IMG/VR virus record: IMGVR_UViG_2802429221_000012
Coordinates: 1 to 6,833 of that record
DNA: 6,833 nt
From: a virus
Taxonomy: Duplodnaviria; Heunggongvirae; Uroviricota; Caudoviricetes
Strand: one strand, 5' to 3'
Shown here: positions 1 to 6,833 of the stretch, one piece after another
Layout: every line of letters begins with the position of its first letter
Numbering within the stretch: the stretch's first letter is position 1
Position numbers and translations under genes: made by a program
Notes under the pieces: model-generated
The model's database searches: none
What the model was told of the DNA's origin: nothing
What the model saw: the letters and a program-made list of their open reading frames with translations, nothing else

Positions 1-1005
1 TTAATCCCCCGTGGACACTGCGTGGACACTCACGCCACCTTTCAGCGGATTAAGGGCCACCGCATCCTGCAGGTAATCCGGTGCAAAATGTGCATATGCC
101 ATTGTTTGCTGAATGGTTGCGTGACCAAGAATCTTCTGAAGTGCAATAATGTTTCCTCCGTTCATCACAAAATGGCTGGCGAACGTATGCCGCAGCACAT
201 GTGCAGCCTGGCCTTTTGGTAAATCGGGCTTAACTCTTTTCAGCGCCAAGCAGAATTCCCGGTACTTCACCTCAAACAAGCCGCCTGTTTCTCTGGTTTT
301 GATCGCCTCACAAACTGCCTGCGAAATTGGCACTGTTCTCTTTCGGCCATTTTTGGTTTCAAGAAACGTTACACGGTTATGAACTATCTGTTCACCACGA
401 AGCTTACAAGCTTCACTCCAGCGCGCCCCTGTGCTTAAACACAAAAGCGCAACACGCCAGTAGTCGCCCTCCAGTGTATCGAGCAATAGCGCTACTTCCT
501 TCTGGGACAGGAAAGCCATTTCTCGTGGAGATACATAAAGAATAGAAATCCCCCTTACCGGATGCTCTGCATCCCAGAGGCCTATTTTCTTCAGTACGGT
601 AAACATTCCGGATAACCGATTCATGTATCTGTTAGCAGATGACGGTTTCAATCCATCAGCTATCTTTTGAGAACGCCACGCGATAATTTTCAGCTTATCA
701 AGATCCACAGCCTGCATATCAGCGCCAAGCTCATTGATTATGTTGCGCAGTTGTTTTCGATCTTCTTCAGCCTTACGCCTGTGCTGGCCGTGATACATCC
801 ACCACAACTCAAGCAAATCATTTAGCGTTCGACGATCACGGTAGCCCTGTATATATTCCCGCTTTTCAGCGTTCGCCATGATGTAGCGTTCAGTGGCCAC
901 CGCTACCGATTTTTTGTCAAATACCTTACGCACGCGCTTTCCCTTGCGTCCGTTCGGCCTGATGTCCAGCAAATAACGACCATCTTCGAGCTTCTTAATC
1001 GACAT
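1..1005 (-). CDS. int: Phage tyrosine integrase (site-specific recombinase), P2 Int-like, 334 aa
   Basis: Track ORF 1..1020(-) begins at a TTG; the first ATG is at 1005..1003 (MSIKKLEDGRY...), preceded on the coding strand by GGAGGG (complement of 1013-1018) at 7 nt spacing. C-terminal region contains HVLRHTFASH and QTMAYAHFAP, the H-x-x-R and catalytic-Tyr motifs typical of tyrosine recombinases. N-terminus and overall length resemble P2 Int from memory. Stop codon is at window positions 3..1. Confidence 0.9.
   Translation of the reverse strand: MSIKKLEDGRYLLDIRPNGRKGKRVRKVFDKKSVAVATERYIMANAEKREYIQGYRDRRTLNDLLELWWMYHGQHRRKAEEDRKQLRNIINELGADMQAVDLDKLKIIAWRSQKIADGLKPSSANRYMNRLSGMFTVLKKIGLWDAEHPVRGISILYVSPREMAFLSQKEVALLLDTLEGDYWRVALLCLSTGARWSEACKLRGEQIVHNRVTFLETKNGRKRTVPISQAVCEAIKTRETGGLFEVKYREFCLALKRVKPDLPKGQAAHVLRHTFASHFVMNGGNIIALQKILGHATIQQTMAYAHFAPDYLQDAVALNPLKGGVSVHAVSTGD
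11..30. repeat. Tandem direct repeat GTGGACACT-gc-GTGGACACT inside the 3' end of int; candidate integrase arm-type binding sites
   Basis: Seen directly: 9-bp unit at 11-19 and 22-30 with an 11-bp period. From memory, P2-family Int arm sites are short direct repeats containing GTGGACA near the int 3' end; that recollection is unverified. Confidence 0.3.
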
Positions 1006-1101
1006 CGCGAAGCCCTCCAATGAACCGCTCTACAATTTCTCCAGCCTCTTTCCAGCAATAATCAGACCAGACAAAAAGCAGGTCTAACCAGTTTTCTGGC
1101 C

Positions 1102-1422
1102 TCAGCGGGGTGATTTTTGGTTTGTTTCGGTTGAAACCTGATCGCCCTCCGAATCGAAGAAGCCATCAAGAGAGAGAGGCGGAGCAATCTGCCCCGTCGC
1201 AGCATTAGTTTGATTAAACATCACCCAATCCGAATACTTCCGAAAACGAGGATGATTCAAAATCAGGAGTAACGTTTCTCCAGGTATCATTCTTCCCAAT
1301 ATTTCATAATTTTTGAGATTGTTTTGAGATACCCCTGTCACCTCTTCCATCTCTCTACGTGACAATCCCTCTGCCTCTCGAATCAGGCGAAGTTTTTCTC
1401 CAAGGCTTGATTTATGGATCAT
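1102..1422 (-). CDS. C: Immunity repressor, P2 C-like HTH protein, 106 aa
   Basis: Track ORF 1102..1440(-) begins at GTG; first ATG at 1422..1420 (MIHKSSLGEKLRL...). Helix-turn-helix-like segment LSRREMEEVTGVSQNNLKNYE, and a C-terminal ...NQTNAATGQIAP... stretch resembling P2 C as I recall it. Divergent from cox, upstream of int, as in the P2 C-int operon. Confidence 0.8.
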   Translation of the reverse strand: MIHKSSLGEKLRLIREAEGLSRREMEEVTGVSQNNLKNYEILGRMIPGETLLLILNHPRFRKYSDWVMFNQTNAATGQIAPPLSLDGFFDSEGDQVSTETNQKSPR

Positions 1423-1537
1423 ATGTGATCTAAACTCCACGATATTGGGTTACATGTAATACAAAACATTCAAATAGCCAAAATAAGCCTATATAAGCCA
1501 TTTTGGGCCATTTGGACGAATTAAGGAGATTACCACA
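1423..1537. promoter_or_regulatory. Divergent Pe/Pc lysis-lysogeny switch region with candidate early promoter and operator repeats
   Basis: 115-bp AT-rich spacer between divergent C and cox starts. Candidate rightward promoter: -35 TTCAAA (1469-1474), 17-bp spacer, -10 TATAAG (1492-1497). Direct repeat TAAGCC at 1484-1489 and 1494-1499 flanks the -10; tandem CCAtttTGG / CCAttTGG at 1498-1506 and 1508-1515 overlaps the predicted transcript start. cox RBS AAGGAG at 1523-1528. Promoter and operator assignments are by eye and not experimentally anchored. Confidence 0.5.
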
Positions 1538-1825
1538 ATGAGCGAATCAGAGCTTGAGGGGTTCATTCAGGTAGCACCATATCCACTTGAAGCGGTGCCA
1601 TATCAACTATTTGCCAAGATGATTGGTCGCAAAGAATCAACCGTCAGAACCATGATTGACGCTGCAAAGTTACCAACGATTGACTTTGTGAAACCAGGTT
1701 CAGTGAAGACGCGAGCATCAGAAAACTGGGTATATCTGCCAGCATTTAACGCAGGTATGCGCAAAGCATTTTTTGATCAGCCGAAAGAGCGCCGCGACGC
1801 ATGGTTGCTCTGGCTGGGTCTTTGA
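1538..1825 (+). CDS. cox: Cox-like excisionase / early transcriptional regulator, 95 aa
   Basis: ATG 1538 with AAGGAG 9 nt upstream. Translation contains ...VPYQLFAKMIGRKESTVRTMIDAAKLPTID...NWVYLPAFNAG...RRDAWLLWLGL, closely resembling P2 Cox as recalled (WVYLPAWN, WLMWLGL). First gene of the rightward operon, divergent from C. Confidence 0.85.
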   Translation: MSESELEGFIQVAPYPLEAVPYQLFAKMIGRKESTVRTMIDAAKLPTIDFVKPGSVKTRASENWVYLPAFNAGMRKAFFDQPKERRDAWLLWLGL

Positions 1826-1836
1826 CGAGGATTTTT

Positions 1837-2178
1837 ATGAGACAACAACGTAATTCACGCTTCCGCAACGGTGCGGAACGCCATGCTAACCGTTTCGCTA
1901 CCAGTGCATCACGTAGCAACTCTCGCTACAGCCTGAGCGAAACACACGCAACGCCGGATGGCTACCCAGTAAAACAAATCGGCGAGCACGCCTGGTTGAT
2001 TGAGAAAGCTGGAATCGTGGTCCACAAATGCCCACGCAATCCGTTTACCGGAAACCGCATTTTTGCACTGAGCAGCGGCGACAATCAGTTCGGGCAGGAT
2101 TTCACATTATACGAAGCACTTCGCACGGTTGATCGTCTGCTTCGCGGGCAAAGTTTTATTAAACAGGCTGATTTATAA
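1837..2178 (+). CDS. Hypothetical phage early protein, 113 aa, basic N-terminus
   Basis: In-frame ATG at 1837 within track ORF 1801..2178, GAGG at 1827-1830 six nt upstream; begins 11 nt after the cox stop. Translation MRQQRNSRFRNGAERHANRF... has no domain I can recognise. Confidence 0.6.
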   Translation: MRQQRNSRFRNGAERHANRFATSASRSNSRYSLSETHATPDGYPVKQIGEHAWLIEKAGIVVHKCPRNPFTGNRIFALSSGDNQFGQDFTLYEALRTVDRLLRGQSFIKQADL

Positions 2179-2188
2179 CAGGTGCTTT

Positions 2189-2467
2189 ATGACCAAAGAG
2201 CATGCACAAGGTGTATTTATCCGTTTTATTGATTTTCGCGGTGAACTGTTATTACGTGCATCAGCTATTGATGCTGTAGCCCAGGCAGAAAAAAAAGCAG
2301 TTACTCACGTTTATGCGAACAACGCACAACTGATCGTGGAGCTTCCGTACCAGACCGTTCGCGAAGCCATTAACGAAGCTGAAAAAGCGTGCCAGGCTAA
2401 TAGCGATGAACCCTATATCGAAATTATTTGTATGGATTCAGAAGCTGAAATTAAGAAAGCAGATTAA
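2189..2467 (+). CDS. Hypothetical phage early protein, 92 aa, acidic
   Basis: In-frame ATG at 2189 within track ORF 2129..2467, 10 nt after the previous stop (MTKEHAQGVFIRF...). Same strand and tight spacing as the rest of the operon. No recognisable domain. Confidence 0.6.
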   Translation: MTKEHAQGVFIRFIDFRGELLLRASAIDAVAQAEKKAVTHVYANNAQLIVELPYQTVREAINEAEKACQANSDEPYIEIICMDSEAEIKKAD

Positions 2468-2478
2468 AGGGCGTTGTG

Positions 2479-2721
2479 ATGGGCAAAGAATATAAAACTC
2501 TCATTAACAAAGCACTTGAGCGTTTTTATTTTCGCTTAAGCGCATCAGGCGCTCATGCTGAACGTGCAGCCCGTGACTCATTGACCAGGGCAATCCGGAG
2601 TCTGTATGACGTGGCTTTTTACGCTGATGATCTGGATGCACTTAACGAACTTTCCGAGCTGATCTGTGCCGCAGAATGCGGGGAACATATTGAACCGTAT
2701 AAGCTGGGGAATATTGCATGA
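2479..2721 (+). CDS. Hypothetical phage early protein, 80 aa
   Basis: ATG at 2479 (track ORF starts at GTG 2476), 11 nt after the previous stop. Translation MGKEYKTLINKALERFYF...; stop TGA 2719-2721 overlaps the start of the next small ORF. Confidence 0.6.
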   Translation: MGKEYKTLINKALERFYFRLSASGAHAERAARDSLTRAIRSLYDVAFYADDLDALNELSELICAAECGEHIEPYKLGNIA

Positions 2722-2831
2722 GTATATTTATCTCATGGCTTGTTCTGATTATTTCGGTGGTCTGCGCCATTGGGATTATGCGAATTATTCATTCAGTAAA
2801 AAAGATTGAACGCTTTTTCACTGGTGAATAA
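2718..2831 (+). CDS. Small hydrophobic peptide, 37 aa, predicted single transmembrane helix with basic C-terminus (not in supplied ORF track)
   Basis: ATG 2718-2720 overlaps the upstream TGA stop (ATGA junction). Translation by hand: MSIFISWLVLIISVVCAIGIMRIIHSVKKIERFFTGE, stop TAA 2829-2831. About 20 hydrophobic residues then KK/R-rich tail. It is short, so a chance ORF in this AT-rich stretch is possible. Confidence 0.4.
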   Translation: MSIFISWLVLIISVVCAIGIMRIIHSVKKIERFFTGE

Positions 2832-2924
2832 CGATACAAATAAAACATCAAATTAAATAAGAAAACGTGAAAACCATCCGTATTAACGGAGGTATTCGCA
2901 CACGAAAATAACGGAGATACAAAA

Positions 2925-3335
2925 ATGCACGCAAAAGAAGAAGGTATCATCAGAGCACTGAAAGAAATTTCAAAGACAGAAAACGAAGTAGCGAAAAAAG
3001 CCATAGCAAATAATCATATGGACGTCGCAACCCACACACTGATAGTCGCAAGAGTCACGGCAGAAGCAGCCGAAATTATCGCACAACAGGATGCTGAACT
3101 GGCGGTTCTCAGAACACAACCAGTCACCGGACTGGATTTGTCTAACACCGGACGCCTTATTTACACAATTGGCTCGGAGCTACAGCGATACACCATTATC
3201 GCCGGGTTACAGGATAAATACCTGATCACTCCTCACCCCATAAGGGAATCAGAAATTCTGACAAATCTCCGCCTGATAGAGCGCTCTCAAGTCGCATTCA
3301 TTGATGACGCACAGTGCACCGTATTTAACGCATAG
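2925..3335 (+). CDS. Hypothetical protein, 136 aa
   Basis: ATG 2925 with GGAG at 2913-2916 (8-nt spacing), preceded by a 93-bp AT-rich spacer (2832-2924) that could hold an internal promoter. Translation MHAKEEGIIRALKEISKTENE... has no recognisable domain. Confidence 0.65.
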   Translation: MHAKEEGIIRALKEISKTENEVAKKAIANNHMDVATHTLIVARVTAEAAEIIAQQDAELAVLRTQPVTGLDLSNTGRLIYTIGSELQRYTIIAGLQDKYLITPHPIRESEILTNLRLIERSQVAFIDDAQCTVFNA

Positions 3336-3358
3336 GGTTACTGGACAAAGGGGGCGCA

Positions 3359-3562
3359 ATGGCAATTAAGCATTTTCCCGTCGTTCGCTTTACCTCCAGA
3401 GGGCGCGAATACGAGGTCGACGAACGCCTGATTACCACTATCGACAAACATCGTTCGGAAAAGGATGCACACCACATCTACCTCACTGACGGCACTTACT
3501 TCTGCGCCACGAATGTGGTGCGGGTGAACCTTATCCGACAGGTACAGGAGTCACGCAGATGA
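3359..3562 (+). CDS. Hypothetical small protein, 67 aa; first gene of a translationally coupled chain
   Basis: ATG 3359 with AAAGGGGG at 3347-3354. Stop TGA 3560-3562 overlaps the next ATG at 3559 (ATGA). C-terminal tail ...VRVNLIRQVQESRR. Confidence 0.6.
   Translation: MAIKHFPVVRFTSRGREYEVDERLITTIDKHRSEKDAHHIYLTDGTYFCATNVVRVNLIRQVQESRR
3520..3562 (+). repeat. Copy 1 of a duplicated ~43-nt gene-junction segment (C-terminal tail codons, Shine-Dalgarno, ATGA overlap)
   Basis: 3534-3562 TCCGACAGGTACAGGAGTCACGCAGATGA versus 3916-3944 TCCGACGGGTACAGGAGTCACACGGATGA: 26 of 29 identical by manual alignment, with weaker similarity extending about 14 nt upstream. Confidence 0.7.
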
Positions 3563-3825
3563 CCATTCTGGACTATATCGCTACTCATCCGGGTTGTAGC
3601 GGCGGAGAAATCGCCGCAGCACTGAATACTCCAACCACAGCCATTAATGCTGAGTTACGCCGACTTTGGCGCAGCGGCTTAGTCATCAGAACAAACCGCA
3701 GCACAGGTGGTCACGCTCGCAAAACAGGAGGCCGGGCTTCTTACCACGTAAACCCGATGCCGTTCGGGTGTGGCAACCCACTAACCCACATGTTTAACCA
3801 GCTACTGAAGGAAGCCAGAGCATGA
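3559..3825 (+). CDS. Putative winged-helix DNA-binding protein, 88 aa
   Basis: ATG 3559 overlapping the upstream stop, with AGGAG at 3546-3550. N-terminal segment LDYIATHPGCSGGEIAAALNTPTTAINAELRRLWRSGLVIR looks like a winged helix-turn-helix; this is inferred from the pattern, not from a search. Confidence 0.6.
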   Translation: MTILDYIATHPGCSGGEIAAALNTPTTAINAELRRLWRSGLVIRTNRSTGGHARKTGGRASYHVNPMPFGCGNPLTHMFNQLLKEARA

Positions 3826-3944
3826 GCACCATCAACCACCAGGAACCACGCGAACTGGCGACTGCCGTACAAAGAATGTCTACCCAAAAATCACTGCCAT
3901 TCCGTGTGAGCCCTGTCCGACGGGTACAGGAGTCACACGGATGA
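3822..3944 (+). CDS. Small ORF, 40 aa, coupled at both ends (not in supplied ORF track)
   Basis: ATG 3822-3824 overlaps the upstream TGA (3823-3825); stop TGA 3942-3944 overlaps the next ATG at 3941. Hand translation: MSTINHQEPRELATAVQRMSTQKSLPFRVSPVRRVQESHG. Its 3' end repeats the 3' end of the 3359-3562 gene. Confidence 0.4.
   Translation: MSTINHQEPRELATAVQRMSTQKSLPFRVSPVRRVQESHG
3902..3944 (+). repeat. Copy 2 of the duplicated ~43-nt gene-junction segment
   Basis: See copy 1. Both copies end in an ATGA stop/start overlap and encode an (I/V)R(Q/R)VQES tail on the upstream protein. Confidence 0.7.
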
Positions 3945-4159
3945 ACAGAAGGAGAATTACACGCAGACATCGCCGCACGCGCCTGAGCTCCCCGCCAACA
4001 CTAAAGGAACTCATTCAAAGCGAGATCGGTGATTTCTTCGCTGGGTTTGGATCACCTGGCGAACCAGAAACACCAGAAGCGATGCAGCGCGAACTCATGA
4101 TGCGCATCGATAACGTTTTTGACTTTTTCCTGAATAACAAAAGAGAGCAACCGACATGA
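3941..4159 (+). CDS. Hypothetical protein with arginine-rich N-terminus, 72 aa
   Basis: ATG 3941 overlapping the upstream stop. N-terminus MNRRRITRRHRRTR has 8 Arg in the first 14 residues, followed by an acidic C-terminal half (EIGDFF...EPETPEAMQRELMM...). Stop overlaps the next ATG at 4156. Confidence 0.6.
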   Translation: MNRRRITRRHRRTRLSSPPTLKELIQSEIGDFFAGFGSPGEPETPEAMQRELMMRIDNVFDFFLNNKREQPT

Positions 4160-4359
4160 ACGAAAGGACCTGGTTTCGCGCATACATGTGGGCGCTGGTA
4201 TGCGTCCTCTTTTCTCTCATTCTGTATGCAGGACTACTCCCCCGAATGATTTCATCAGACAGCTCCTTCCTGGTATTGCTGGGCATTTTCATTGCCATGC
4301 TGTACCCGGCAGGCGTTGTTCGCCTTTTCAGTAAATACATCAAGGAAATCAAACAATGA
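4156..4359 (+). CDS. Small integral membrane protein, 67 aa, two predicted transmembrane helices; putative partner of the downstream SPFH protein
   Basis: ATG 4156 overlapping the upstream stop. Two hydrophobic stretches (WALVCVLFSLILYAGLL and FLVLLGIFIAMLYPAGVV) separated by a short polar loop. Stop TGA 4357-4359 overlaps the SPFH gene ATG at 4356. Confidence 0.65.
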   Translation: MNERTWFRAYMWALVCVLFSLILYAGLLPRMISSDSSFLVLLGIFIAMLYPAGVVRLFSKYIKEIKQ

Positions 4360-5186
4360 AGAAATTCAAACTCTTTCAGATTATCCCGCTTTTTGCCGCC
4401 ATCCTGCTGGTTGGTTGCGATCGCGTTGAACCAGGTAATGTGGGCATCAAAGTCAACAAACTGGGCGACGATAAAGGCGTCGGTGAAGTGGTTGGCGTTG
4501 GCCGCTACTGGACAGGCTGGAATACCGAGGTTTACATCTTCCCGACCTTCAAACAAATGAAGACCTACGATGAGCCATTCAGCTTTCAGATGAGTGACGG
4601 CACAACCATCGGCTATCACATCGGTGTGGCCTACAAGGTTGATCCATCCAAAGTTACCACAGTGTTTCAGACCTACCGCAAAGGCGTGGATGACATTACC
4701 GACACTGACCTGCGCCAAAAGATCGCCGATGCACTCAACCGACTGGCCAGCAAAATGACCACCGATAAGTTTATCGACGGTGGCAAGTCTGAACTGCTGG
4801 ATTCAGCACTTAAAGACATTCAGGCAGAAATGACACCTATCGGCATTCAGGTAATGAGCCTCTCTTATGTGGGTAAGCCGGAATACCCGCCAACCGTTAT
4901 CGACAGCATTAATGCCAAAGTCACGGCAAACCAGAAAACTCTGCAACGCGAGCAGGAAGTCAAGCAACGCGAAGCAGAAGCCAACATGTTGCGCGCAGAA
5001 GCTGCCGGACAGGCTGATGCCATTCGCACAAAAGCCCAGGCTGAAGCCGACGCCATTCGTTTACGCGGTGAAGCTCTGCGCCAGAATCCCGGCGTTATGG
5101 AGCTGGAAGCAATCAACAAATGGAACGGCACGCTGCCGCAATACATGACCAGCAATACCGCTGTTCCGTTTGTTCCGGTGAAGTAA
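4356..5186 (+). CDS. SPFH/band-7 (stomatin/prohibitin/HflK-C-like) family lipoprotein, 276 aa
   Basis: ATG 4356 with AAGGAA at 4342-4347. N-terminus MKKFKLFQIIPLFAAILLVGCDR is a signal peptide plus lipobox (LVGC); Asp at +2 after the Cys suggests inner-membrane retention in enterobacteria. C-terminal Ala/Glu/Gln/Arg-rich predicted coiled-coil segment ...QREAEANMLRAEAAGQADAIRTKAQAEADAIRLRGEALRQNPGVMELEAINKW... is characteristic of SPFH-domain proteins. Family assignment is from motif recognition only. Confidence 0.75.
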   Translation: MKKFKLFQIIPLFAAILLVGCDRVEPGNVGIKVNKLGDDKGVGEVVGVGRYWTGWNTEVYIFPTFKQMKTYDEPFSFQMSDGTTIGYHIGVAYKVDPSKVTTVFQTYRKGVDDITDTDLRQKIADALNRLASKMTTDKFIDGGKSELLDSALKDIQAEMTPIGIQVMSLSYVGKPEYPPTVIDSINAKVTANQKTLQREQEVKQREAEANMLRAEAAGQADAIRTKAQAEADAIRLRGEALRQNPGVMELEAINKWNGTLPQYMTSNTAVPFVPVK

Positions 5187-5192
5187 TTAAAC

Positions 5193-5237
5193 CCGGCCGG
5201 TGAAAATCGCTGGCCGGAGCAGTATCAGGATTTTTTT
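5193..5237 (+). terminator. Candidate terminator-like hairpin downstream of the SPFH gene
   Basis: CCGGCCGG (5193-5200) pairs with CTGGCCGG (5210-5217), an 8-bp GC-rich stem with one G-U pair and a 9-nt loop. The T7 run (5231-5237) is 13 nt downstream, so this is atypical for an intrinsic terminator. Confidence 0.3.
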
Positions 5238-5338
5238 AGCATGCCGTTCTCACAAAAAAACCGCTTGCCATGCCGCAATCAGTCAGGTTACATTTCCGCT
5301 GTACCTCATAAAACGGGTGCCGGGTTTCGCAGCCTGCT

Positions 5339-5544
5339 GACTAGCAAAGCGCACAACCGCGCCAGCGGTTTTTTTGTGCGTACTGTATTGCCACGTCTTT
5401 TTCGCACACGAATTATGGCGGGGCGTACGGGGCCGACTTCGGTCGGGCCGGGTTCTTTGCTAGCCGGTACTGCGAACCTCGTACGTCTCGCCACCCACAG
5501 TTTCGCAGCTCTGGATGGTGAGTTTTCAAAACTTACTAGCAAAG
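5339..5544. repeat. Three copies of a 9-10 bp motif ACTAGCAAAG (two direct, one inverted) in the non-coding spacer; candidate regulator binding sites
   Basis: ACTAGCAAAG at 5339-5348 and 5535-5544 (flanks CTnACTAGCAAAGnG also match); inverted copy CTTTGCTAGC at 5455-5464. The core GCTAGC is palindromic. The third copy directly abuts the AAGAGG RBS (5542-5547) of the 5555 gene. Confidence 0.4.
5351..5379 (+). terminator. Candidate intrinsic terminator (short GC stem plus T7 run)
   Basis: ACCGC (5356-5360) / loop GCCA / GCGGT (5365-5369) followed immediately by TTTTTTT (5369-5375). Flanking GCACAA (5351-5356) and TTGTGC (5374-5379) are also complementary. The stem is short, so strength is uncertain. 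Confidence 0.4.
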
Positions 5545-5554
5545 AGGCCACACC

Positions 5555-5785
5555 ATGGCAAACCGCAAACAGCACCGCGCTATCGCGGAGCGTCGTCACA
5601 TCCAGACTGAAATCGATCGCAGACTCACCCGCGCTGCACACATCGCCTTTATCATGCAATCCAACACATTGCACAGACTCAACAGCACTATTTCAGCCGA
5701 CTACTGCGCCGCTGTATTCAGCTATCTGGCGGAAGACCTCCTGTCTCTTCAGGATCTCATCCAGCAGCAAAACAAACTCCATTAA
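5555..5785 (+). CDS. Hypothetical phage early protein, 76 aa
   Basis: ATG 5555 with AAGAGG at 5542-5547 (7-nt spacing). Translation MANRKQHRAIAERRHIQTEIDRRLTRAAHIAF...; same strand as, and upstream of, the replication gene. Confidence 0.6.
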   Translation: MANRKQHRAIAERRHIQTEIDRRLTRAAHIAFIMQSNTLHRLNSTISADYCAAVFSYLAEDLLSLQDLIQQQNKLH

Positions 5786-5858
5786 TTCCTGTTCCGGGCC
5801 TTTCCTGCACCTTGCGGCGGGAGGCCTTCGCACATCTGTAGTAAAGAGGATTGCCGCA

Positions 5859-6224
5859 ATGATTCTCGCCAACGACTTTCTTGAATACCTGCTCAACACA
5901 GAGCGTGATCTTGCCGTTCGCGTGCGTGAACGTTATGACATGTACCTGAAATCCCTGCCTGTACCGCAGCTCGCTGACGGAAAATTTGTTATTGATGGTC
6001 GCTACATGATTGACAGCCACGAGGGGAATTACAGGCTTTACCGCATTGAAGCCGGCACCCCGTCCGTTATTGGCATTTACCAGCGCCCATCCTCTGCGAT
6101 CGTCGATGTGATTGCCGACAGCATCCGCATCACACATCGCCATGCCGACACAGAAGACACCGTGCTGGAAATTCAGCGGCTGGCTACAGTCTGCCGCGAC
6201 ACCCTGAATGGCATGACGAAGTAA
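5859..6224 (+). CDS. Hypothetical phage early protein, 121 aa, immediately upstream of replication gene A
   Basis: Track ORF 5241..6224 is an open frame with a low-complexity S/T/R-rich 5' region that overlaps the terminator-like hairpins and the 5555 gene. The plausible start is the in-frame ATG at 5859, with AAGAGG at 5844-5849 (9-nt spacing). Translation MILANDFLEYLLNTERDLAVRVRERYDMYLK...; stop TAA 6222-6224. Confidence 0.6.
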   Translation: MILANDFLEYLLNTERDLAVRVRERYDMYLKSLPVPQLADGKFVIDGRYMIDSHEGNYRLYRIEAGTPSVIGIYQRPSSAIVDVIADSIRITHRHADTEDTVLEIQRLATVCRDTLNGMTK

Positions 6225-6230
6225 ATCACT

Positions 6231-6833
6231 ATGACAGCAGAGTACATCAGGGACTGGCAACAACCGCGCCACGCAGTGGGGCGTGAAGGAACGGGGATCC
6301 CCGCTCCTGAATCCGCGCTTTCCTCCTGGCTGGATGCCTACCGGGCAGAGAACGAGCGCCGCCAGGAAATAGCTGATGCGGCGTTCTCCGCCACACCGCT
6401 GGGCAACCTGATTAATAAAAGCCTGGACGCACAGGAAAAACAGGACAAAACCATCACACTGGCAGGAGACGCCAGAAAACAGGCACGCGGCGCGGTGGAT
6501 GAAGCCATGGCCTCGCTGCGCCTGCTGCCGTCCTATCTGCGCGATCCGCTTATTCGCCACCTCTCCTTCCTGCGCAAAAAACAGGAAGCCGATCGCCGGA
6601 AAGGCAAAAAGAGCTGGCAGGCTGAACGCTACGCGTGCGGAACCCTGCGCAAAATATTCGAACGTCTGGACCGCACCGACCACCGCTGGCTGACACCGGG
6701 TTATCGCTCCCTTGCCGGACGCGAACGCCTGGATGATTTGCTTTACCTACCGCAGCTCAACAAACACCAGATACAGACACTGGCCACCATGACGGCGGCG
6801 ATGTTCAGCAGCACCTTCGAAAAACTCTGCGAT
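6231..6833 (+). CDS. A: Replication initiation endonuclease, P2 gpA-like, N-terminal 201 codons (3' end beyond the window)
   Basis: ATG 6231, 6 nt after the previous stop; frame is open to the window end by manual translation (MTAEYIRDWQQPRHAVGREGTGIP...LRLLPSYLRDPLIRHLSFLRKKQ...AAMFSSTFEKLCD). The RLPSYLR and F..EKLCD segments resemble the N-terminal region of P2 gpA as I recall it; position after the early genes matches P2. Absent from the ORF track because it has no stop inside the window. Confidence 0.7.
   Translation, partial: MTAEYIRDWQQPRHAVGREGTGIPAPESALSSWLDAYRAENERRQEIADAAFSATPLGNLINKSLDAQEKQDKTITLAGDARKQARGAVDEAMASLRLLPSYLRDPLIRHLSFLRKKQEADRRKGKKSWQAERYACGTLRKIFERLDRTDHRWLTPGYRSLAGRERLDDLLYLPQLNKHQIQTLATMTAAMFSSTFEKLCD

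Follow-up and report, generated by a model that had tools for sequence, protein, structure and literature searches.

A 37-residue membrane peptide gene and a conserved stem-loop at the end of the early gene block of P88-type prophages

Judged by the way its sequence varies among relatives, the reading frame at positions 2718-2831 of a 6,833-nt stretch of phage DNA (positions 1 to 6,833 of IMG/VR record IMGVR_UViG_2802429221_000012, class Caudoviricetes; the whole stretch is here called the window) is a genuine gene that codes for a protein and evolves under purifying selection. That it is a real gene and that its 37-aa product is a membrane protein are, taken together, very probable. The best overall explanation, to which we assign a probability of roughly 0.6 (a blended figure for several parts), is that the frame encodes a membrane peptide which would act as a modulator made from an early operon, and that a putative RNA hairpin follows it.

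The gene is an ordinary, already annotated, lineage-restricted small phage membrane protein gene. RefSeq genomes of E. coli (annotated by PGAP) list it as WP_000021656.1, a hypothetical protein; the phage P88 record contains it as gp07 (YP_009113050.1) under the name "membrane protein", the P88_4B11 record contains the same ORF as gp47, and other phage records call it as well. A preliminary description of the window, made from its letters, had presented the ORF as unannotated, which these records contradict. The small ORF calls in RefSeq are confirmed as real genes by the present analysis. Our literature search found no paper that contains the peptide sequence or discusses the gene.

Genomic setting and coding status of the 37-codon frame

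The window is drawn from a P88/Xuanwuvirus-type P2-like prophage (Peduoviridae), a common E. coli prophage type, and covers its early region, with int, C, cox and replication A synteny (Table 1). Citrobacter phage phiSM, P88 and P88_4B11 match the whole window patchwise at 93-95% identity, and the 1-kb stretch around the 37-aa ORF matches prophages in E. coli chromosomes at 98.7% identity. Among 5,426 complete E. coli genomes, 1,364 match the same 1-kb stretch, 539 of them at a coverage of at least 80%; although about a quarter of these genomes show a match, the peptide gene has no family model.

The genes cox, DUF4761, phrog_3800 and DUF4754 and the peptide gene form a conserved block, with the 37-aa gene as the last member, in a rightward early operon of tightly packed + strand genes. 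A terminator scan of the + strand from cox to the spacer behind the peptide gene gave weak matches exclusively, all of them within genes. The DUF4754 gene lies directly 5' of the peptide gene, with a 4-nt overlap, in every diverged locus that was individually examined. Its product is modelled by AF2 as a helical hairpin (pLDDT 89), and a Foldseek comparison of this model with the PDB returned generic helical matches only (E > 1) and no informative fold. Sequence searches of the PDB with the peptide profile, DUF4754 and the product of the downstream 136-aa gene gave nothing below E = 0.2.

Table 1. Features of the window, with coordinates counted from its first nucleotide
Feature	Position	Strand	Remarks
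Integrase	1-1020	minus	
C-type repressor	1102-1440	minus	
cox	1538-1825	+	opens the rightward gene series
DUF4761 gene, then phrog_3800 gene	between cox and DUF4754 gene	+	
DUF4754 gene, upstream partner	2476-2721	+	Pfam PF15946, E = 2.9e-54; RefSeq start ATG 2479; TGA 2719-2721
SD-like GGGGAA	2706-2711	+	7-12 nt 5' of ATG; anti-SD duplex -5.5 kcal/mol
37-aa membrane protein gene	2718-2831, stop included	+	orthologue of P88 gp07 and WP_000021656.1
Predicted transmembrane helix, residues ~2-21 (19-20 residues)	2721-2780	+	from hydropathy, AF2 and family alignment
Net-positive amphipathic tail, residues 22-37	2781-2828	+	from charge and family alignment
A6 homopolymer in GTA AAA AAG	2798-2803	+	indels lead to 45 aa (...KRLNAFSL...) or 30 aa (...KKD)
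T5 homopolymer in CGC TTT TTC	2814-2818	+	one-base deletions lead to 45-aa alleles (...RFSLMNN...)
Spacer, 93 nt	2832-2924		between 37-aa ORF and 136-aa gene
A-rich part of spacer	2832-2866	+	moderately conserved; 3' end is the invariant AAAAC
Conserved stem-loop	2867-2899	either	core 2877-2881 (TCCGT) with 2886-2890 (ACGGA), loop 2882-2885
Outer stem	2867-2875 with 2891-2899		weakly supported
Cargo cassette, RBS and 136-aa gene	2904-3348	+	missing from P88 and P88_4B11
136-aa gene, phrog_9338	2925-3335	+	
67-aa gene, phrog_3459	3359-3562	+	directly after the spacer in P88-type phages
MarR-like wHTH gene, ead/Ea22-like gene, small membrane protein, SPFH lipoprotein	after 67-aa gene		
isrK/C4 RNA module, then start of replication gene region	far end of window		

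The frame translates to MSIFISWLVLIISVVCAIGIMRIIHSVKKIERFFTGE. Its ATG shares the tetranucleotide ATGA with the TGA of the upstream 80/81-aa DUF4754 gene, and an in-frame TAA at 2700-2702, six codons 5' of the start, makes 2718 the only possible start of the 37-aa ORF. Coordinates, translation and the overlap with the upstream stop are as the preliminary description gave them. An SD-like motif occupies the same position in the diverged relatives, where 8 of 9 loci reach -5.5 kcal/mol or better, compared to a background in which about 11% of positions reach -5 kcal/mol or better, and the motif persists even where the C-terminus of DUF4754 is unrelated.

An ORF of 37 codons is by itself no proof of a gene, because the window contains 77 ORFs of at least 30 aa. 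The pattern of variation is more telling. Among 91 related loci, which represent 59 unique sequences, 45% of the variants in frame 0 are synonymous compared to 27% expected (p = 0.0026) and none creates a stop codon, while frames +1 and +2 show no synonymous excess; the DUF4754 gene, used as a control, has a variant pattern like that of frame 0. Pairwise dN/dS by the NG86 method is 0.16-0.35 in frame 0, with a median of 0.23, whereas the median is 0.99 in frame +1 and 2.3 in frame +2; the set includes 41-aa relatives, and its most distant pairs have saturated synonymous sites. Homologues at the same position in related prophages, for which the preliminary description had proposed to look, retain the slot, the frame, the ATGA overlap and the length even when identity has fallen to about 55%.

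The abundance of ORFs in the window could also be taken to mean that the frame is a non-functional chance ORF in DNA that is conserved for another reason, as a regulatory RNA or as hitch-hiking sequence. The first ~72 nt of the ORF are almost invariant among close relatives, at synonymous sites too, and frameshifted alleles exist, both of which fit such an explanation. However, the synonymous excess and the low dN/dS are specific to frame 0, that frame has acquired no stop-creating substitutions in the related loci, and relatives of about 55% identity, in which synonymous sites are saturated, still preserve length, start, SD-like motif and the C-terminal FTG[ED]. We consider a chance ORF extremely unlikely.

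The peptide is 92-97% identical to the copies in P88-type phages (97% over 37 aa for P88 gp07) and 95% identical to the largest E. coli cluster, the E. coli homologues having been searched with the peptide extended upstream in frame. P88 gp07, WP_000021656.1 and P88_4B11 gp47 are its orthologues and share the 114-nt length, the ATGA overlap and the position in the early operon. The slot of this orthologue group, with the DUF4754 stop overlap on one side and the conserved hairpin on the 3' side, is present in the window as it is for P88 gp07 and WP_000021656.1. The window differs from P88 and P88_4B11 in an extra 136-aa cargo gene and in the TCCGT/ACGGA variant of the hairpin.

More distant relatives of 41 aa (P0142, P0143 and P0145) are about 54-68% identical to the 37-aa peptide and occupy the identical slot in a P2-like early operon, including the ATGA overlap with the DUF4754 gene; they were found in 23 and 10 of the 5,426 E. 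coli genomes. An exhaustive HMMER profile search of 1.84 billion proteins, from which the 41-aa relatives came, produced only 18 hits; those full-length hits that were retrieved are members of this peptide family, the rest being short fragments or fusions. By tblastn against 50,697 phage records, P2- and 186-type phages included, the peptide was found only in P88-type phages. Comparisons of the peptide with Pfam, PHROGs, NCBIfam and PADLOC yielded no significant match, and our searches found no homology to any characterised protein. As far as sequence searches reach, the family is confined to Escherichia-type prophages and its comparative depth is shallow.

The peptide and its possible role

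The 37-aa ORF is the most hydrophobic in the window, with a best 19-residue Kyte-Doolittle mean of 2.81 compared to less than 2.5 for all other ORFs, and hydropathy is maintained at 2.7-3.0 throughout the relatives. AF2, supplied with an alignment of 17 sequences, models a single continuous helix over residues 2-34 (pLDDT 87). The family alignment shows conservation of M1, F4, S6, W7 and L10, of G19 and a small-xxx-small arrangement of S/A13 and A17 inside the transmembrane helix, and of R/K22 at the membrane boundary. The tail displays a heptad-like hydrophobic stripe (I23, I24, V/L/I27, I30, F/L33, F34) among the charged residues K28 and E31, and its ending F-T-G-[E/D] is conserved. In all relatives the tail has a net charge of +1 to +3 and the N-terminus is uncharged. 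Hydropathy, the AF2 model and the tail charge agree in supporting the single predicted transmembrane helix with a short basic tail that was proposed at the outset. By the positive-inside rule, the peptide would be inserted into the inner membrane in the N-out/C-in orientation with a cytoplasmic tail.

In phage P2, the C protein represses the early promoter Pe. By analogy with P2, the peptide gene would be expressed from Pe only, in which case it would be silent in the lysogen and the peptide would be made early after infection or induction; a packed + strand operon that has neither an internal promoter nor a strong terminator fits such Pe-driven expression. Translation would be coupled to that of DUF4754, probably yielding the two products in a roughly fixed proportion. 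Once in the membrane, the peptide could bind a partner through the small-xxx-small face of its helix (S/A13, A17, G19) and its amphipathic tail; candidate partners are an inner-membrane protein of the host and DUF4754, singly or together. We put forward the role of a small membrane-anchored modulator tentatively, and at somewhat less than even chances. Generic membrane permeabilisation by the peptide is less likely.

The closest functional analogues, by analogy without homology, are bacterial small single-pass regulators and early-operon host modulators. MgrB, AcrZ, MgtS, SgrT and the SidA-type division inhibitors are proteins of 30-50 aa that combine one transmembrane helix with a short soluble tail and act by binding a larger membrane protein. 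The peptide resembles them in architecture, and its small-xxx-small transmembrane face fits partner binding, but it differs from them in being phage-encoded and part of an early lytic operon, and it shows no sequence similarity to them. Lambda CIII, Kil and 186 Fil are short proteins that are produced from the early lytic transcript and act on host functions. To our knowledge, they are soluble or amphipathic and none of them is an integral transmembrane peptide. The peptide shares with CIII, Kil and Fil the short length and the early lytic transcript and differs from them as a predicted transmembrane peptide; a host-directed role like that of Kil or Fil, one of those suggested in the preliminary description, is possible.

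A more specific extension, which we regard as speculative and rather unlikely as a whole, is that DUF4754 and the translationally coupled 37/41-aa transmembrane peptide constitute an unrecognised early host-takeover module of P88-type P2-like phages. In such a module the peptide would anchor or target one of the essential machines of the inner membrane, such as the divisome, FtsH/HflKC or Sec/YidC, and the stem-loop behind the gene would serve as a dedicated junction element delimiting a hotspot of fast-exchanging cargo, possibly with anti-defence functions. If the peptide does target a host membrane machine, it would be a new phage-derived small-protein inhibitor and would provide a handle on early host takeover by P2-like phages.

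The membrane character of the peptide led the preliminary description to compare it also with type I toxins, according to which a hok/ldr/tisB-like depolarising peptide, held in check by an antisense RNA, would serve prophage addiction or abortive infection. The resemblance is real: Hok/Gef, Ldr, TisB, Ibs and ShoB are shorter than 60 aa, have one hydrophobic helix and are often borne by prophages or plasmids, and the peptide is likewise small, very hydrophobic, single-pass, charged in its tail and prophage-borne; a hok/gef gene exists elsewhere in P88-type phages. The genetic organisation is different. Unlike Hok/Gef and other type I toxins, the peptide gene lacks a promoter of its own, a structured leader and a mok-like coupling ORF, and instead of forming its own transcription unit it follows a conserved protein gene, to which it is coupled, within a packed, polycistronic early operon; there is no 5' leader, because the ATG overlaps the DUF4754 stop in every relative. 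Simple promoter and Rfam scans, which could miss a non-canonical RNA, revealed no antisense RNA: the minus strand over and beside the ORF contains no promoter-like site, the sole match (2973->2946) lying in the non-conserved cargo gene, and Rfam finds no sRNA in 2718-2924. Pfam gives no match to Hok/Gef, and none to any other toxin family, the peptide has no Ldr homology, and PADLOC is silent. These observations turn against the toxin reading, which we consider very unlikely.

Alternatively, the peptide could be a superinfection-exclusion or defence protein that blocks DNA entry or triggers abortive infection against competitors. Many exclusion proteins are small inner-membrane proteins, as exemplified by T4 Imm, P22 SieA and HK97 gp15, and this general knowledge favours the idea, as do the lineage restriction of the peptide gene and its position adjoining a cargo hotspot. 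The gene belongs, however, to the conserved block and lies outside the variable cargo, and PADLOC has no match. Moreover, its early lytic operon would, by the P2 analogy, be repressed by C in lysogens, and a peptide that is absent from the lysogen because of this repression could not protect it. An exclusion or defence role is therefore unlikely.

The preliminary description had also mentioned holin-like peptides. One transmembrane helix with a charged C-terminus resembles the minimal layout of a holin or pinholin, a generic likeness that does not discriminate, and it could suggest a holin, an antiholin or some other lysis-timing peptide. Yet P88-type phages hold a complete late lysis cassette with holin/anti-holin, endolysin and DUF2570 genes among the late genes about 15 kb away (17862-18978 in P88, compared to 2931-3044 for the peptide gene in the early operon), the 37-aa ORF belongs to the early operon, and neither Pfam nor PHROGs gives a holin family match. 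We give this comparison scarcely any credence, and retain the modulator as the preferred reading.

The spacer, its stem-loop and the cargo hotspot

The two 200-nt windows with the lowest GC content in the whole window are 2701-2900 (0.35) and 2801-3000 (0.34), the next being 0.375, in agreement with the initial observation that the most AT-rich stretch lies at about 2700-2925. The low GC is largely a matter of content, because hydrophobic codons have T in the second position and the spacer is A-rich. Neither the T-rich ORF nor the A-rich tract requires a foreign origin, and the compositional dip needs none.

The same AT-richness had raised the idea of a promoter within the spacer that would drive the 2925 gene and the genes downstream of it. 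The spacer is AT-rich, is located at a module junction and, with 93 nt, is the largest intergenic gap in the operon, all of which a promoter would fit. On the other hand, a promoter scan of the + strand over 2832-2924 detected no sigma-70-like site at 9/12 or better, and no conserved -10- or -35-like hexamers occur in the spacers of diverged relatives. TATTAA, the best -10-like hexamer, overlaps the hairpin loop, whose sequence is free to vary from relative to relative, and what the spacer conserves is an inverted repeat rather than hexamers. Furthermore, the spacer is equally present in phages that lack the 2925 gene, such as P88. An internal promoter is quite improbable, and neither this interpretation nor the type I toxin interpretation should be propagated.

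The inverted repeat forms a conserved stem-loop 45 nt 3' of the peptide stop, and the consensus of the element across relatives is AAAAC-N(0-2)-A-TCCGC-N4-GCGGA-GG, with the core generalised as TCCGY-N4-RCGGA. Most relatives have the core TCCGC-N4-GCGGA and the window copy is TCCGT-ATTA-ACGGA (2877-2890); this double change from C-G to T-A keeps the pairing and amounts to one compensatory event. At nine loci ACGGA is changed to ATGGA, which still allows a G.U pair on the + strand, and one locus has a stem change that is G.U-compatible on the minus strand only. The 4-nt loop varies freely (ATTC, ATTA, ACTC, TCAC, AACG, AACA, ATCT). All 20 of the 20 unique variants fold stably on both strands, with means of -11.3 kcal/mol on the + strand and -13.1 kcal/mol on the minus strand compared to about -4.7 kcal/mol for shuffled sequences. 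Covariation in the hairpin, with its one compensatory pair, is not significant, as 32-43 of 500 shuffles reach the observed values.

The motif is tightly linked to the peptide gene. Out of 119 IMG/VR contigs that contain it, 115 have the peptide gene just upstream and two more are cut by the contig end; the other two correspond to the chance level for an 18-base pattern. The window and the 35.8-kb P88 genome each contain a single copy of the motif, which led us to reject a repeated operator. An Rfam scan of 2718-2924 gave no match at E <= 1. On the hairpin the terminator scan gave only a weak minus-strand match with a 5-bp stem. A terminator acting on the minus strand was considered and set aside: the stem is too short, the U-run pairs into it in the folds, and no conserved minus-strand gene lies downstream.

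We suggest with clear reserve that the hairpin may be an RNA structure of the early transcript that serves, where the modules meet, as an element of stability, processing or pausing. A protein-binding palindrome would fit the near-invariance of the stem sequence just as well and is a possible alternative to an RNA stem-loop.

Homology between related phages ends about 13 nt after the core stem, following ATTCGCACAC. Across 97 loci, the gene that comes first behind the hairpin is drawn from at least six unrelated families. One of them, a family of 124-138 aa, is itself very diverse: its 32 loci contain 23 distinct sequences. The 67-aa gene comes directly after the spacer in P88 and P88_4B11; in the window the 2925 gene intervenes as a bare RBS and ORF cassette, placed in a spacer that exists without the cassette in P88, and homology to P88 resumes at the RBS of the 67-aa gene. 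At the stem-loop the conserved block ends and a hotspot of cargo genes begins, and the module boundary that the preliminary description had suggested from base composition is borne out by the break in homology and the exchange of genes behind it. Early-expressed accessory or anti-defence genes could be sought with the help of this conserved hairpin and the cargo hotspot behind it.

Alleles with an altered tail

Approximately 3-10% of the sampled alleles carry one-base homopolymer indels (Table 1) that replace or truncate the tail of the peptide. In phage 503458, whose record has other split genes as well, the copy of the peptide gene is broken, and this phage was excluded from the comparisons. 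Programmed -1 frameshifting at A-AAA-AAG (2798-2804) was considered as a source of an alternative tail and is unlikely, since the 41-aa relatives do not conserve the heptamer. These distant relatives do share the tail motif of the 37/41-aa frame, which marks this frame as the ancestral functional one. The alleles with shifted tails are either decaying prophages, tolerated variants, which would imply that the tail is partly dispensable, or homopolymer sequencing errors.

Slippery heptamer and variant copies of the 37-aa ORF

The 37-aa ORF contains, in the correct frame, a dnaX-type -1 slippery heptamer, A-AAA-AAG, at which a -1 shift would yield a 30-aa product with a KKD end. In two IMG/VR contigs this 30-aa product is encoded in the genome itself, as an allele of the gene. 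Among the 41-aa relatives, the diverged homologues of the peptide, the heptamer is not conserved. In phage 503458 (L090, 361–468) the copy of the peptide ORF is broken by a 4-nt deletion followed by an additional A in the A-run, with the frame restored past an internal stop. The replication genes in this record are also split, and this points to errors in the assembly or to decay of the prophage.

A type I toxin gene of the hok/gef kind (MokW-like) lies at 34928–35068 in phage P88 (L098), near the right end of the genome and beyond the region that the window covers.

The slot following the spacer hairpin

The slot directly 3' of the spacer hairpin, together with the equivalent slot in the related loci L084–L097, is a cargo hotspot, and its first gene belongs to at least six unrelated families (97 loci). 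One of these, a family of 124–138 aa (phrog_9338), stands out for its unusual diversity: 23 different sequences occur at its 32 loci, which would fit an arms-race gene. At some loci a ParE-like gene adjoins the phrog_9338 gene.

Gene junctions, the SPFH pair and RNA genes

The coordinates of the features discussed are collected in the table. A 45-nt direct repeat is present in two copies that are 82% identical, each covering the 3' end of a gene together with the RBS and ATG of the gene that follows. The repeat has the appearance of a linker reused at gene junctions or of a scar left by recombination. Within copy 2 there is, in addition, an inverted repeat of 16 nt. The ead/Ea22-like gene (3822–4159) appears to be split in two in the window, and E. 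coli strain 1190 has one CDS of 99 aa where the window has the two ORFs.

The phrog_1130 gene overlaps the start of the SPFH gene, and the arrangement is reminiscent of an NfeD-like/SPFH pair that travels as cargo of the early operon. Genes of Stx-converting phages and phiP27 match the SPFH gene at 92–93% identity and are annotated there as 'serine protease'.

Strong Rfam matches identify isrK and the C4 antisense RNA, and this segment (5301–5498, + strand) forms a module of the P1/P7 type for c4 anti-repressor control within a P2-like early region, with 'ash/derepression' genes downstream. Because a 327-aa ORF from the mechanical ORF listing overlaps both RNAs, its N-terminal part is probably non-coding.

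Features of the window, in order of position
Feature	Position	Remarks
A-AAA-AAG heptamer	2798–2804	
Cargo slot	2925–3335	
45-nt repeat, copy 1	3521–3565	includes ATG of MarR-like gene at 3559
ead/Ea22-like, part 1	3822–3944	40-aa ORF
16-nt inverted repeat	3901–3941	
45-nt repeat, copy 2	3903–3947	includes ATG of 72-aa ORF at 3941
ead/Ea22-like, part 2	3941–4159	72-aa ORF; phrog_4144 match limited to positions 34–99
67-aa two-TM membrane protein (phrog_1130) and 276-aa SPFH/Band-7 lipoprotein gene	4156–5186	
327-aa ORF	5241–6224	
isrK	5301–5375 (+)	61.7 bits
C4 antisense RNA	5411–5498 (+)	82.8 bits
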